Shown piece after piece: positions 1,765 to 63,807 of a stretch of 64,000 nucleotides of DNA (the stretch's first letter is position 1; every line of letters starts with the position of its first letter). Source of the DNA: Candidatus Poribacteria bacterium (lineage in GTDB: Bacteria > Poribacteria > WGA-4E > PCPOR2b); assembly GCA_965116925.1 (NCBI GenBank), contig OZ220744.1, positions 2,729,136 to 2,793,135 of the forward strand. The letters run 5' to 3'. Position numbers and translations under genes: made by a program. The notes below the pieces were generated by a model. The model saw only the letters and a program-made list of their open reading frames with translations. It was not told the DNA's origin and made no database searches.

Positions 1765-2389
1765 GAGGTTTAACCTCCTTGTTCTGTGACTGTTCAGCAA
1801 TTTTTGTGCCAAACATCTTGCTGAGGGCGAGAACTGGAATTTGATTGATTAAACAGGTGAACTTCGGCTTTAGATTGGATAGGGGCTGCTATGCGCGAAA
1901 TACCTATGCAGTTCAGGCTGGGGTTGTGGACTTACATCCGATAGAAGGTGGGGTTAAAACCGTCTTGAGATAGGGCTGTATTTCGCTTACAGGCAGGGAG
2001 GAGATTGCCCAACATCGTGCACACCGGTGCTTACTTTTAGCCTTCAATGTGCAAGGAATCCTTTAGATAGTTGGCGGATGGAGTCTATGCAATTGGAGCG
2101 AGGATTTGCCGATTTGTTCGGGGTTTGGGGCGGTGGGTGGAGGATCAGTTGAGGCTTGGAGGTGTAATGCAGCTTGGTTGAACTGTTCAAATTTTGAACA
2201 CCACTGTTTTATGAATAGACACAGTGAAACCAACACGCAATCCACACCTTGGTTATCAAGAGTTGGGTTTCACGGTTTCATTCAACCCAACCTACAACGC
2301 TGTGTTGGTTCATTGGTTCGTGTGTAAGAAAGACTGTCGATTTTGGAAAATCGACCTACAGCAGTCTGTGGGGATCGGGTTTCCTAACT

Positions 2390-10742: not shown

Positions 10743-10866
10743 ATTTGAACTCCAATTATGAGATAAGGAATAAGGTTCATGTCAAAAGACAGTGCAAGAC
10801 GATTAGAACGTGAAACGTGATGCGTGAAACGTGAAAGTAATTTGTTCATTGGTTCATTAATGCTCT

Positions 10867-10900: not shown

Positions 10901-11962
10901 GTCGAGCAATTCCTGACAGTTCCAATCCTGAAAATGAGTGTATCGGAGTTTGAATCGGAACACGCTTTGCCAGCCGATCGGAGGGAAGAGGGTCGCAATC
11001 ACCGAGAGCCGGTAGTCGTGGACACAGTCTTCCCAGCTATACCCTAAAACTCCTCCATCGACGAGACCATCGTAATAGTAGCGCAACAGATCCTTCTCGA
11101 TTTCATGCCGTTGCGGTGAGGAATCGCCTCCAACTAAGTAACAGAGATCATAGGGACCCATACCGCGTTTATAGGTTTCCCAATCACCAAAATACAGTCC
11201 ATCTGTTTCCGGGTTTTTAGGATAGAAGAGATTCCAATGATGCAGGTCACCGTGTAGAAGTGTCAAAGCTTTGTTATCTTTGATCCGCTCAGAATACAAC
11301 CGTTCCCAGCCGTTGACAGCGTGATGTACAAAATCGAATGCTTCCTGTGGCAATTCGTCTTGAGCTGTGTCTGAAAATTGGGGAAGCAGCTCGTCTCTCC
11401 AGTGTTCACAATAGGTTCGTATGATTTCGGGGGTTGCAGCATCTGCCATGCGGAGCGGGCCCCCACGCCCTCGCAGAAAATCGGCTTGTGAAATTCGCGG
11501 GTGCTCCCACCATTGCGTATGGAACTTCAGCAGTTCATCAATAATCTGCTTGTAGAGCGCGACGCTGAATCTTCCTTCCACTTTGGGCGGGGATTCGGTG
11601 TGCGTCACAGAGGCATCTTCAAAGATAAAATAGCATTGACGGGCGTCTCGGTCATAATCGAAGTCGTAACATCGGAAGACCGGCGGGTCGGGCATTTGGG
11701 CGACAATTTCGTTGAAGAATACCGATTCAGCAACGCCACCCCCAAACCAACCGTCCCGATAATTTTTGAAGATTAGATCAGTATGTGGACGATGCTCCAA
11801 TTCAGTGGAATAGGCCACTTTCAACCGTGTGAAAAAGGCGGCGGTTGATTCAAATGTCTCACCGATTTGCACGTCAGTTACAGCGTGTTGTGAAAGGTGC
11901 CCGTTCTGTTGCAACCGACCCGTCAGCCATTGTGGTGTGATCTGTTCGGCACAGGTAATCAA
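10886..11962 (-). CDS. Phosphotransferase-family (APH/CHK-like) kinase
   Basis: 'LLHGDLHHWNLFY' catalytic-loop motif and 'DWE' typical of aminoglycoside/choline-kinase-like phosphotransferases. Confidence 0.65.
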   Translation of the reverse strand: MITCAEQITPQWLTGRLQQNGHLSQHAVTDVQIGETFESTAAFFTRLKVAYSTELEHRPHTDLIFKNYRDGWFGGGVAESVFFNEIVAQMPDPPVFRCYDFDYDRDARQCYFIFEDASVTHTESPPKVEGRFSVALYKQIIDELLKFHTQWWEHPRISQADFLRGRGGPLRMADAATPEIIRTYCEHWRDELLPQFSDTAQDELPQEAFDFVHHAVNGWERLYSERIKDNKALTLLHGDLHHWNLFYPKNPETDGLYFGDWETYKRGMGPYDLCYLVGGDSSPQRHEIEKDLLRYYYDGLVDGGVLGYSWEDCVHDYRLSVIATLFPPIGWQSVFRFKLRYTHFQDWNCQELLDYSEF

Positions 11963-25201: not shown

Positions 25202-25250
25202 CGGTCTATTTGGTTCATTGGTACATTAGTTCATTGGTACATTATCCGTG

Positions 25251-26506: not shown

Positions 26507-26546
26507 AGTTGGTTCATCGGTACATTAGTTCATTGATTATGAAGTT

Positions 26547-52424: not shown

Positions 52425-52751
52425 ATTGACCCGCTTAGTTCATTGGTTCACTAGTTCATTGAACTGATGAACGATATACATTGCGTGCTTCATACAGCAG
52501 TTACGGCATACGGAATATACTTGCCATATTATTAGTAATAATTCCTATTACTGATAGATAGAATTATACCAAAAAGGAATTGGATAGGTCAAGTTAAAAA
52601 TGTTTTTTTTATTATGAAAAGGATATTGGGTTCCATGGACATTCTGTTGTCGAGATATGAATCTTGACCTACAGGATACTTGCTCGTTTTGGGCGTGGTG
52701 GGAGGGTCGGGCAAGATGCCCGACCTATGTGTTCTCAAATGTCAACACGCC

Positions 52752-53816: not shown

Positions 53817-53877
53817 ATTTGTCCTTTCTGATGTTGGTTCATTGGTTCATTGATCTATTGGTGCCTCATTGCTATGC

Positions 53878-60083: not shown

Positions 60084-60199
60084 CTATTTGTCCTTTGCTG
60101 ATTTTCCTTTTGTCACGTGTGATTTAGGGCTCATTAGTTCATTGGTGGATCGGTTCATTTATTTTTTTATCCATCACGCATCACGTTTCACGTTTCAGT

Positions 60200-60715: not shown

Positions 60716-60936
60716 CTATCCCTCCTGTTATATTTGGTTCATTGGTACAATAGTTCATTGGTTCATTTCGTTTTCGCGTTTCACGTCCCGATTTCATCGA
60801 GGATCCCGCTACGCGGAGCATCACGTTTCACGCATCACGTTTCAGATGTTACCTATAACTCTACAACGGATGTGGGGAATAATCAAGCCTTTTTGCCCTT
60901 GCGTCACCTTTGTGTATGTGCTATAATTCACCCACT

Positions 60937-61401
60937 ATGAAAGCTGAGAAGTCTGTTGCGACTACGGGTCCAATTGCTAGGAATAAGAAAGCGCGGTTCG
61001 ATTATCATTTGATGGATCGTTTCGAGGCAGGGATTGCCCTCCAAGGAACGGAGGTCAAGGCGATTCGTGCGGGTCGGATGAATTTGACCGATAGCTACGC
61101 TCGCGTTGACGATGGGGAGGTCTTTCTGATTGATGCCCATATCGGTCCTTACGAGCAAGGCAGTCGCGAGAATCATGAGCCGAAGCGGAAGCGGAAACTC
61201 CTGTTGAACCGTCGGGAGATTAAGCGGATCGAAGGGAAAACTCGACCGACCGGCATGACGATTGTGCCGACGAAGGCTTATTTCAGCAAGGGTAGAGTAA
61301 AGGTTGAAATCGCAGTGGCGCGTGGTAAGCACGACTACGATAAGCGCGAAGATATGCGGCGGGAAGTAGATCAACGGGCAATCCAATCGTATATGAGGTA
61401 G
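60937..61401 (+). CDS. smpB: SsrA-binding protein
   Basis: 'IARNKKARFDYHL...GIALQGTEVKAIRAGRMNL..SY' canonical SmpB. Start at MKAEK. Confidence 0.95.
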   Translation: MKAEKSVATTGPIARNKKARFDYHLMDRFEAGIALQGTEVKAIRAGRMNLTDSYARVDDGEVFLIDAHIGPYEQGSRENHEPKRKRKLLLNRREIKRIEGKTRPTGMTIVPTKAYFSKGRVKVEIAVARGKHDYDKREDMRREVDQRAIQSYMR

Positions 61402-61442: not shown

Positions 61443-61898
61443 ATGGCTCTGAAATTTCGGTGTGAAAACTGTAGTAAAGATATTGCTGTTAGGTTCTTGG
61501 AAGTTGATGAGGTCGCCAAATGCAGAAACTGTGGGGCAAGTAATTCTGTTCCCGAATCTGCAGAAGCCATTAGTGACGAAGCCGCAGAAAGCATAATTAA
61601 GGCTACTGTTCCCGAACCAATAGAGGACATTAGTGCGGAAGCCATGAGTGTCGAACCCACGCAAAGTGTACCTATGGCTAAGGCGTTACGCAGAGTCAGT
61701 AGAATAGTAATAGGCATCGGAATTATTGTGGGAATAGTTACGGCTATAAGAGTAATGATTCGACATCCCGCGCCCGATCAAACTATGGCAGTGGCTCTTA
61801 GCGGAGGGATGACATGGCTTATGAACATGTTTTTTTTCTGCATTCTTAATCTGCTTTGTTTAGGTATTGCCAAGGTTGTGGCCTTGTTCAACAGATAG
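61443..61898 (+). CDS. Hypothetical zinc-ribbon (CxxC...CxxC) protein with a C-terminal TM region, located between smpB and ssrA
   Basis: 'CENCSKD...CRNCGAS'. AGGAGGA RBS. AT-richer than its neighbours. Confidence 0.45.
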   Translation: MALKFRCENCSKDIAVRFLEVDEVAKCRNCGASNSVPESAEAISDEAAESIIKATVPEPIEDISAEAMSVEPTQSVPMAKALRRVSRIVIGIGIIVGIVTAIRVMIRHPAPDQTMAVALSGGMTWLMNMFFFCILNLLCLGIAKVVALFNR

Positions 61899-61928: not shown

Positions 61929-62518
61929 GGGGGTGAAAAGGTTTCGACGAGAGTAGATGATGTAAAGGTTGCATGCCGAGGTCTCCGCAGGCCTCGTTAA
62001 ACAGGCGGAAACAATTTAATTGCCGATGAAGAATTGGCTCTAGCTGCTTAATAAAAGCGGCTCGTCCGGCTAATTTGCGGTCCCGTCGAGTTAGCCCGAC
62101 GTCAACAAACGGGCTGTGCGCCTTACTTGTTCTCAAGGGGCATGGCGCGAGATTTAACTTGAGATAGTCCGCAGCGAATCCGGCATAAGGGAGTCCTATG
62201 GACGAAACACCAAAGCTTATGCTAAGCATGTAGTAGCCTTTATTGAAATGCTCTCGGACGCGGGTTCGATCAGTCTGGTCGACTTGGAGGGCAACCTCCT
62301 CGATTAAACTTGGCTTACATCGGTGAAACCTAAGAGATGGCGACATCTTATGGCAACACCGAGGGATTGTATGGTCCTGTAGAGACTGTAATGATAGGAG
62401 ATAATGTCAACGACAAATCTAGATCTCCTATAACACGCTAGGCTCCACCATTTTGGGTGGATGAAGATATAGTCCACGCCTCTGGGAAACCGGGGGGTCA
62501 CGTGTCCCGCCACCTCCA
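61929..62518 (+). ncRNA. ssrA: tmRNA (ssrA) interrupted by a group I intron in the T-loop. Exon 1 is 61929-62270 and exon 2 is 62505-62518. The tag reading frame spans 62022-62054
   Basis: 5' 'GGGGGUGAAAAGGUUUCGACG...GGUUGCAUGCCGAGG..CCUCG' (D-loop analog and PK1) closely parallels E. coli ssrA. Tag ORF GCC GAU GAA GAA UUG GCU CUA GCU GCU UAA UAA gives ...ADEELALAA. 3' 'GGACGCGGGUUCGAU | intron | UCCCGCCACCUCCA' restores a canonical T-arm and a 7-bp acceptor stem with a G3-U70 wobble. A T-run follows. Confidence 0.85.
62271..62504 (+). other. Group I intron (234 nt) inserted in the tmRNA T-loop
   Basis: 5' exon ends in U paired to an internal guide 'GUCGA' (P1: UCGAU/GUCGA with a U-G wobble at the splice site). 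The intron ends in G. Core-like elements 'GUAGAGACUGUAAUG' and 'GAAGAUAUAGUCC' resemble the P7/P9.0 region (AAGAUAUAGUC) of Tetrahymena-type group I introns. Confidence 0.7.
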
Positions 62519-62725
62519 TCTTTTTTAAGATTTTGAAACATTGGTTCAAGTGTAGTTACGGCATACGGAGTATGCCTACTACTTTGGTTCATTGGTTCAT
62601 TTTGTTTTCACGTTTCACGCATCACGTTTCATCTCCCATGAATGGCAATATCCTTGTAACCTCTGTTAGGCATAATTGAGTTAGTCATTTTGAACCCTAA
62701 CAGTGTTACAAGGAGGAACTGAACC

Positions 62726-63424
62726 GTGCAAACGTTAAACCGAGCCAAGCTCATCGTGAGATCGCATGTGAACGATCTCCTAGAGAAAGCAGAAGATACG
62801 CGTAAAACGCGAGGTCTTATGGTGGAAGAGATGCGCCAGAACGTGCGCCATGTCAAGGCTTTAATCGCAGGTGCGATCGCAGATCTCAAGCTGATCGAAC
62901 GGGAGATCGACGCTCATGGAACTGAAGCCAATAGGTGGGAGGATAAAGCGGTCTTCGCTTTAAAAAAAGGGGAGGAAGATCTCGCCCGTCGTGCACTCAC
63001 TCGCAAAGGTGAGCATATAAAGAAGGCAGACCTGTATCGGGAACAGATCGAGACACAGCAGGAGATAATTGACTCCCTCAAGTCCAGTTTGAAAACGCTG
63101 GAGACCAAGCTAGACACAATACGCTATCAAACTGCGAAATTGGCTGCCGCTGAAAGTTTAGGGGCATTGCAATCCACCGTCGGCGCAACACCACCGGCTG
63201 ATACAGTGATTGATACGACTGCGTTTGATGCCTACGATCGGTTGGTTGATCGTGTACGCGATCTCGAAGTACATGCAGAGGCGTTAGCGGAGTTGACGCA
63301 AGGCGATGACCTTGAGCAGCAATTTCATGAACTTGAGAACAGCGAAAAGGTCGAGGCGGACCTTGCGGCATTAAAAACCAAAGTCCGTCCTGATGATCCA
63401 GGGAGTGCACCCGCAACGGAGTGA
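62726..63424 (+). CDS. pspA: PspA/IM30-family protein (phage-shock protein A / Vipp1-like)
   Basis: All-helical coiled coil. 'LIVRSHVNDLLEKAEDTRK...' PspA N-terminal amphipathic helix. GTG start with an AAGGAGGA RBS. Confidence 0.8.
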   Translation: MQTLNRAKLIVRSHVNDLLEKAEDTRKTRGLMVEEMRQNVRHVKALIAGAIADLKLIEREIDAHGTEANRWEDKAVFALKKGEEDLARRALTRKGEHIKKADLYREQIETQQEIIDSLKSSLKTLETKLDTIRYQTAKLAAAESLGALQSTVGATPPADTVIDTTAFDAYDRLVDRVRDLEVHAEALAELTQGDDLEQQFHELENSEKVEADLAALKTKVRPDDPGSAPATE

Positions 63425-63807
63425 TGCGGATGGCTGATTTTCATCGGTTACCGTCTCGTATTCAGGAGACAACCCAAGATCAACTGAGTGCAGATGAACA
63501 GGTCCGATTGTGCACCCTTGGCAGGTCTAGCCTGCTGAACCCCGATTTTGTTGTTATCACTTCTGACCGGGTGTTGGTGTTGGAGGAGCGTCAGATGGGC
63601 AGTATGAGTGCTTCATACATCAACATTCGGTGCAATCTCTCATTTGCTCAGATTACGGGGGTCAAACTGGACCAAAGCCTCAAACACCGCATCTTTGGTC
63701 AAGCTGCCCTTGAAATTACGGTGAACGGGGATAAACATCTGATTGACAACATCAGCTACCGCGATGCGAAACGCGCAATGGCATTGATTTCCTCTTGCCA
63801 CGAATAA
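63421..63807 (+). CDS. Bacterial PH-domain (bPH_2/YdbS-like) protein
   Basis: 'DEQVRL...SSLLNPDFVVITSDRVLV...' pattern of the bacterial pleckstrin-homology domain. The stop of pspA overlaps its start. Confidence 0.6.
   Translation: MMRMADFHRLPSRIQETTQDQLSADEQVRLCTLGRSSLLNPDFVVITSDRVLVLEERQMGSMSASYINIRCNLSFAQITGVKLDQSLKHRIFGQAALEITVNGDKHLIDNISYRDAKRAMALISSCHE

Follow-up and report, generated by a model that had tools for sequence, protein, structure and literature searches.

Genes with an intron are one of the three recognised forms of the tmRNA gene (ssrA), with 883 of 97,179 unique sequences spread over 21 phyla (PMC11915505); an earlier survey had counted 343 of them (bioRxiv 10.1101/2020.01.27.920355). 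In all of these genes the intron lies in the T-loop, mostly at internucleotide position 7. The family follows the rules of a U at position -1 and a terminal G, and the P7.1 region is the usual host of insertions, with a homing endonuclease gene found in only 4.1% of the cases (PMC11915505). The smallest intron-form gene on record measures 545 bp and the mean intron 293 nt, and for Poribacteria the survey (Supplementary Table 2) gives 114 genomes, with 88 standard and 2 'Intron (7)' genes (PMC11915505). The first intron-form tmRNA was that of Clostridium botulinum, from 2002 (Williams, NAR 30:179; cited in PMC1995217 and PMC2729099). Its intron is 287 nt long, is reported to self-splice, and as a ribozyme was used with the substrate oligonucleotide 5'-CGAU-3' (PMC2729099). 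A preliminary interpretation of the present locus from its letters (the sequence-only reading) had described intron-containing tmRNA genes as rare and confined to a few lineages; the counts above agree with the former but not with the latter, Poribacteria itself being among the 21 phyla.

The locus lies in a 64-kb stretch of DNA, referred to as the window, from a sponge-associated Candidatus Poribacteria bacterium. We interpret it, with a probability of about 0.88, as the single orthologous ssrA of this bacterium, carrying a 234-nt group I intron at T-loop 'position 7' (in the terms of the tmRNA database) that would be removed by ordinary group I splicing. The coordinates of the features are collected in Table 1.

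The only Rfam feature at gathering thresholds across the window is a tmRNA (RF00023, positions 61937-62272, 136.7 bits for a cut-off of 47, E 2e-53). The match is regular across PK1, the tag frame and PK2-PK4, and ends inside the T-loop after GGGUUCGAU; the last 15 positions of the model are absent from it and fall past the intron. Exon 1 comprises the acceptor 5' strand (GGGGGTG, 61929-61935), PK1, the tag frame (codons GCC GAT GAA GAA TTG GCT CTA GCT GCT TAA TAA), PK2-PK4, the 5' strand of the T-stem and nucleotides 1-6 of the T-loop (UUCGAU), the 5' half of the split T-arm being GGACGCGGGTTCGAT at 62256-62270. Exon 2 supplies T-loop nucleotide 7 (U), the T-stem 3' strand CCCGC, the acceptor 3' strand CACCUCC and the discriminator A. 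The discriminator is followed by TCT, so that CCA is not encoded and must be added. The whole gene measures 590 nt (593 with the CCA-equivalent positions).

On the native DNA, ARAGORN reports no tRNA or tmRNA in the whole window, and its intron option (-i) also returns nothing on the undeleted sequence, because introns are permitted there in the anticodon loop only. After the deletion of 62271-62504 in silico, the same program recognises a complete tmRNA of 356 nt, whose tag ADEELALAA is followed by two stops. In the spliced product the T-arm is GCGGG/UUCGAUU/CCCGC, and the 7 bp of the acceptor stem include a G3·U70 pair; a tRNA-like domain together with an ...ALAA tag and its stop, by which a tmRNA is recognised, is present only once the intron is removed. 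The sequence-only reading had called most of the gene a textbook tmRNA with an ADEELALAA tag and double stop, and had rejoined the split T-arm into the arm given above with its G3-U70 pair. The Rfam score and the ARAGORN call on the spliced sequence bear out the former, while the latter is reproduced by ARAGORN after the deletion and is identical in intronless orthologues. All of its coordinates (GGGGGTG, both T-arm halves, the 234-nt gap, the guide, the P7 strand and the terminal G) are correct. Its suggestion of an ARAGORN run with intron detection succeeded only in the modified form, with the intron deleted beforehand. Two other RNA models were considered for the gene and rejected: the permuted (two-piece) tmRNA RF04321 gives a sub-threshold cross-match to its 5' part (34.8 bits for a cut-off of 47) and the gene order is standard, and an sR11 snoRNA match (E 6.4) is due to chance.

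Table 1. Features of the smpB-ssrA locus and of the intron (positions in the window).
Feature	Position	Strand	Basis and remarks
smpB, protein partner of tmRNA	60910..61401	+	Pfam PF01668; ATG at 60937 is the likelier start
ssrA exon 1	61929..62270	+	RF00023, 136.7 bits; ARAGORN on spliced sequence
Tag reading frame (resume codon GCC, peptide ADEELALAA, two stops)	62022..62054	+	ARAGORN (spliced); sequence
Group I intron, 234 nt	62271..62504	+	Intron_gpI match; empty-site orthologues; same intron in L001, L002, L003, L008, L040
P1, exon UCGAU and intron CA (62266-62272) / internal guide UGGUCGA (62276-62282)	62266..62282	+	7 pairs, invariant in 6 copies
P2 hairpin, GGAGG/CCUCC, GCAA tetraloop	62286..62299	+	Hand structure; six copies; MFE
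P3, 5' strand (partner 62437-62442)	62309..62314	+	Double change C-G to U-A; single changes U·G to C-G and G·U to A-U
P4 (62320-62325 / 62357-62362), J4/5 AAA, J5/4 CAA	62320..62362	+	Rfam alignment; hand structure; MFE
P5, inside the P4 span, GCGA loop	62330-62339 / 62344-62353	+	Rfam alignment; hand structure; MFE
P6 hairpin	62363..62378	+	Closing pair U·G, U-A or C-G among copies; in MFE fold
P7, 5' strand GACUG (partner UAGUC, 62470-62474)	62384..62388	+	Rfam alignment; invariant
P7.1 hairpin, 9 bp, AUAGGAGAU/AUCUCCUAU, 20-nt loop	62394..62431	+	Hand structure; copies; MFE
P3, 3' strand GCUAGG	62437..62442	+	Six-copy alignment
P8 hairpin	62444..62461	+	Two copies show a C-G to U-A double change, a third the U·G intermediate
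J8/7 and P7 3' strand, UGAAGAUAUAGUC, most conserved group I core string	62462..62474	+	Sequence; Rfam alignment
P9.0 (62476-62478 / 62501-62503) around P9 (62479-62485 / 62490-62496, GAAA tetraloop)	62476..62503	+	Six-copy alignment; MFE
Terminal (omega) G, last intron nucleotide	62504..62504	+	Sequence; empty sites; in all 6 copies
ssrA exon 2, TCCCGCCACCTCCA	62505..62518	+	Sequence; ARAGORN (spliced); empty-site orthologues

The insert is matched by the group I model Intron_gpI (RF00028) from end to end (62261-62496, model positions 1-253, the full model). The score of 37.3 bits lies below the gathering cut-off of 50, with an E-value of 7.8e-8 for the local stretch and 6.3e-6 over the whole 64 kb; an Rfam search had been proposed in the sequence-only reading, and this is the group I part of its outcome. 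The model is built on 12 seed sequences, none of them a bacterial intron, and the tFind pipeline works with a 20-bit threshold (bioRxiv 10.1101/2020.01.27.920355). As the 5' exon is followed by C and the 3' exon is preceded by G, only one register rebuilds UUCGAUU, and the intron therefore corresponds to 62271-62504, inserted between T-loop nucleotides 6 and 7 (UUCGAU, intron, U). No homing-endonuclease ORF is present in 62271-62504, and no maturase-like ORF is found inside or adjoining the intron.

The P1-P9 structure was drawn by hand with the Rfam alignment as a guide, and compared in an alignment of six copies (the window, L001, L002, L003, L008 and L040; the L081 copy introduced below was left out). 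The core helices P3-P9 occur in the canonical order, the P3/P7 pseudoknot included, with P7.1 located between P7 and the 3' strand of P3. The wobble pair at the 5' splice site, U62270·G62278, is present in all six copies, the GTCGA part of the guide being 62278-62282. Following P8, the J8/7 string UGAAGAUA leads into the P7 strand (AAGATATAGTC, 62464-62474), and the stretch GAUGAAGAUAUAGUCC at 62460-62475 fits the RF00028 consensus at a posterior probability given as an asterisk. The hallmarks of a group I intron listed in the sequence-only reading (a U at the 5' splice site pairing with the guide, a G at the end of the intron, and the P7 strand) thus belong to a full core that can be drawn and that is kept in six copies.

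The structure contains 69 base pairs. Over the 414 pair cells of the six copies (P7.1 loops trimmed), 99.0% are standard pairs, while in a control with the partners slid by 1-3 columns the paired fraction is 39-45%. Double compensatory changes are observed in P3, P8 and P9 (in P9, one G-C to A-U double change plus two single changes), and 13 other pairs vary on one side with the pairing kept. Of the 69 pairs, 54 never vary, and a shuffle control equals the covariation score in 3 of 500 trials. The covariation support is real yet modest, because the six copies are few and closely related. P4 and P7 never vary, and both rest on the model alignment.

The unconstrained minimum free energy (MFE) fold of 62261-62512 recovers P2, P4, P5, P6, P7, P7.1, P8, P9 and P9.0, and also the T-stem across both exons. 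The guide GGUCGA (62277-62282) is paired in this fold with the internal J2/3 segment UCGAUU (62300-62305) and not with the exon, extending P2, so that a fold competing with P1 exists. The J2/3 segment exactly repeats the 3' part of the ligated T-loop and is invariant in all six copies, so covariation says nothing either way. The stability of the intron fold, compared with shuffled sequence, corresponds to z = -1.98. No convincing P10 pairing was found by eye.

A scan of genome collections with the window SmpB returned nine Candidatus Poribacteria MAGs at 87-96% identity (L001-L009) and about thirty further ones at 64-72%; the smpB to ssrA order, with ssrA downstream, is common to all of them. 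Five of the close relatives (L004-L007 and L009) have an intronless ssrA with exons 95-99% identical to those of the window and full-length standard tmRNA matches of 191-199 bits. Their T-arm reads GCGGGTTCGATTCCCGCCACCTCCA, which is the predicted ligation product of the window gene, and the empty site in the T-loop reads GCGGGTTCGATTCCCGCC; the intronless orthologues being exactly the predicted ligated sequence, the intron boundaries are fixed. In the other four (L001, L002, L003 and L008) the tmRNA match is broken off in the same way, at about 135 bits, and an insert of 234-264 nt occupies the identical site (in L008, 3831-4094).

A diverged copy of the intron occupies the same site in L040, a distant Poribacteria-like MAG with an SmpB identity of 64%. 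L081, a JGI metagenome contig and the sole contig of the metagenome scan with the exon-intron junction pattern, is nearly identical to L040, intron included (3861-4446 in L040, 849-1432 in L081). An insertion of 365 nt in one hairpin loop brings the intron of this pair to 586 nt. This loop, of P7.1, is the variable site of the intron: four copies have 20-21 nt there, L008 has 49 nt, and both L040 and L081 have 365 nt. A search for a homing-endonuclease remnant in the 365-nt insert of L040 gave six ORFs, none with a Pfam match at E <= 1; the insert may be what is left of a homing endonuclease gene, or an insertion of another kind. Intron-form outgroups from other phyla were also sought beside smpB in L041-L080, where ARAGORN gave standard tmRNAs or none, and Rfam found no tmRNA in 20 of these loci that had no ARAGORN call; these loci yielded no outgroup sequence.

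Pairwise identity within the close clade is 94-98% for the intron core and likewise 94-98% for the exons, and against L040 it is 87-88% for the core and 81-84% for the exons. By these identities the intron is constrained no less than the tmRNA, and this speaks against a relic in decay. In neighbour-joining trees, whether built from smpB or from the exons, species-level genomes with the intron are interspersed with genomes that lack it, and the exons of the window are 99% identical to the intron-free L007. The interleaving points to recurrent precise loss, or to transfer between alleles, of an endonuclease-free intron. That endonuclease-independent mobility is still going on, through reverse splicing at the UCGAU of the T-loop or through recombination of alleles, instead of old vertical descent with repeated precise loss, seems to us improbable; in the same speculative vein, UCGAUU at 62300-62305 might lock the guide after splicing.

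The surroundings of the gene are as follows. An intact smpB is located just upstream of ssrA (Pfam SmpB PF01668, E 4e-58). Between the two lies a small clade-specific ORF (61443-61898, plus strand, 151 aa) whose product has CxxC...CxxC at the N-terminus, an acidic repeat region encoded by the direct repeats at 61546-61658, and a C-terminus that is hydrophobic. Pfam gives no match for it, and tblastn found it in 8 of the 9 close-clade loci at only 43-79% identity; it is therefore far less conserved than the adjoining SmpB. A promoter and terminator consensus scan around ssrA gave nothing on the plus strand. Downstream of ssrA (62726-63807, plus strand) a PspA/IM30 family gene (E 4e-32) is followed by a bacterial PH-domain gene (E 1e-6), the start of which overlaps the PspA stop codon, an ordinary context. 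The smpB-ssrA unit is flanked on both sides by composite copies of a short intergenic repeat family (60118-60197, 60726-60858 and 62580-62631), with dispersed copies elsewhere, e.g. at 10811-10856, 25212-25241, 26511-26532, 52437-52458 and 53836-53849. An octamer-type repeat, GGTTCATTGGTTCA, has 21 matches with up to 2 mismatches (0.6 expected), 19 of which are on the plus strand, and the repeat TCACGTTTCACGCATCACGTTTCA has 6 matches with up to 3 mismatches (0 expected). A weak match to the Ocean-VII RNA of Rfam at 11135-11163 (plus strand, 23 bits for a gathering threshold of 53.5, E 0.022) is probably due to chance.

In the proposed reaction, a precursor of roughly 590 nt would be transcribed, and the UCGAU of the T-loop would pair with the guide GGUCGA to form P1, in which U62270·G62278 would set the 5' splice site. 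The core would fold into the P3-P8 and P4-P6 domains with the guanosine pocket in P7. An exogenous guanosine would attack after U62270, and the freed 3'-OH of the 5' exon would in turn attack after the terminal G62504, with ligation giving the 356-nt tmRNA. The T-stem, one strand of which lies in each exon, probably tethers the exons, standing in for the missing P10. Both ends would then be matured and CCA added. The complete core, together with the reported self-splicing of the tmRNA intron of C. botulinum, leads us to infer that the RNA is autocatalytic; the window gene is likewise expected to be transcribed and to function as a tmRNA.

Several small group I introns depend on a host protein for splicing. 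The window intron may be a real group I intron that is inefficient alone in vivo and needs a host protein, either a co-opted RNA-binding protein or an RNA chaperone, as its short length of 234 nt, few peripheral elements, lack of an obvious P10, guide sequestered in the alternative MFE helix and only modest gain in stability over shuffled sequence would suggest. We consider such a dependence unlikely, since the intron has three GNRA tetraloops (L2 GCAA, L5 GCGA and L9 GAAA), elements that typically stabilise small self-splicing bacterial introns, and the survey of its interior and borders gave no maturase-like reading frame. Self-splicing is also reported for the intron that C. botulinum has at this site of its tmRNA gene (PMC2729099). 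Less probable still is that this ssrA copy is a pseudogene with an inactive intron, ribosomes being rescued through another ssrA or an alternative rescue factor. Neither ARAGORN nor Rfam at gathering level sees an intact gene or an intron, and the search for ssrA covered the 64-kb window of this genome; however, the gene holds the smpB-linked syntenic place of the intronless orthologue, differs in 1% of its exon positions from the intact L007 gene, has an intact smpB beside it, and contains a core that is kept, with compensatory changes, between lineages showing 16-19% difference in their exons.

The remaining explanation, that the insert is no intron and is instead a miniature transposable element or another insertion of that kind, what is left of an attachment site for a genomic island, or an artefact of assembly, takes its plausibility from the frequent use of tmRNA 3' ends in genomic-island integration (PMC11915505). 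The insert nevertheless shows no target-site duplication, terminal inverted repeat or duplicated ssrA 3' end, and is found in six independent assemblies, which include complete long-read chromosomes. Complete chromosomes that carry the intron include OZ242036.1, OZ242335.1, OZ244042.1 and OY282444.1. The end-to-end group I match, the empty sites, this recurrence and the conserved fold effectively refute it. The preferred reading is thus that of an orthologous ssrA interrupted by a group I intron which would be spliced in the ordinary way.

Both ARAGORN and Rfam at gathering thresholds miss this ssrA or report a fragment of it, and as a consequence a gene of an essential pathway would look absent or broken in the genomes of sponge symbionts. 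If the RNA splices as proposed, the rescue of ribosomes in these bacteria must await a ribozyme reaction, a dependence recognised since the C. botulinum case. The near-identical orthologues with and without the insert offer a natural series in which to follow how a group I intron without an endonuclease is gained and lost. The series opens no new question.

Group I cores related to that of the window were also met outside tmRNA genes. A scan of viral contigs with the P7/J7-9 string gave five contigs with similarity at the level of the core only, of which L083 was examined; blastn of the intron against phage genomes gave no match. On L083, an Intron_gpI match (1933-2217, minus strand, 30.7 bits) splits a recA/UvsX-like gene between the ORFs 2205-2834 and 1528-2019. 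The 21-nt string GATGAAGATATAGTCCACGCC is common to this intron and the window, and the P3'-P8-P7'-P9 half can be aligned, whereas the 5' half is not alignable by nhmmer and the interrupted gene is protein-coding; the kinship is at the group I core only. The string GATGAAGATATAGTCCACGCC also occurs on the viral contigs L082, L085 and L086.

Small bacterial group I introns in tRNA anticodon loops are, as here, mostly without an ORF, with the loop forming P1 and the adjoining stem bridging the exons. They differ in their site, the anticodon loop being absent from tmRNA and the window intron lying in the T-loop, and the window intron also has the P7.1 hairpin between P7 and P3'. This hairpin is a trait of subgroup IA and not of the IC3 type of tRNA-Leu introns. 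Subgroup IA3, to which the C. botulinum tmRNA intron is assigned, is marked by additional pairing in this segment, P7.1 and also P7.2. The window intron has a single P7.1 of 9 bp, and no P7.2 was seen.

With the C. botulinum intron, likened here by its published description, the window intron shares the kind of exon (the T-loop of a tmRNA), and the 5'-CGAU-3' substrate of the former is the end of the 5' exon in the latter. The two differ in size and periphery, with 287 nt and a P6a extension in C. botulinum and 234 nt and a simple P6 here, and in their hosts, which are Bacillota and Poribacteria, respectively. The closest agreement is with the position-7 intron-form tmRNA genes, which have the same site, the -1 U·G pair in P1, the terminal G, P7.1 and, in 96% of the family, no homing endonuclease, and which have two entries from Poribacteria. 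Nothing qualitative differs; the window intron is shorter than the family mean of 293 nt, and the gene, at 590 nt, is on the short side of the family and above its 545-bp minimum. The window gene is an example of the catalogued intron form, already recorded in this phylum, and does not depart from the family in any respect.
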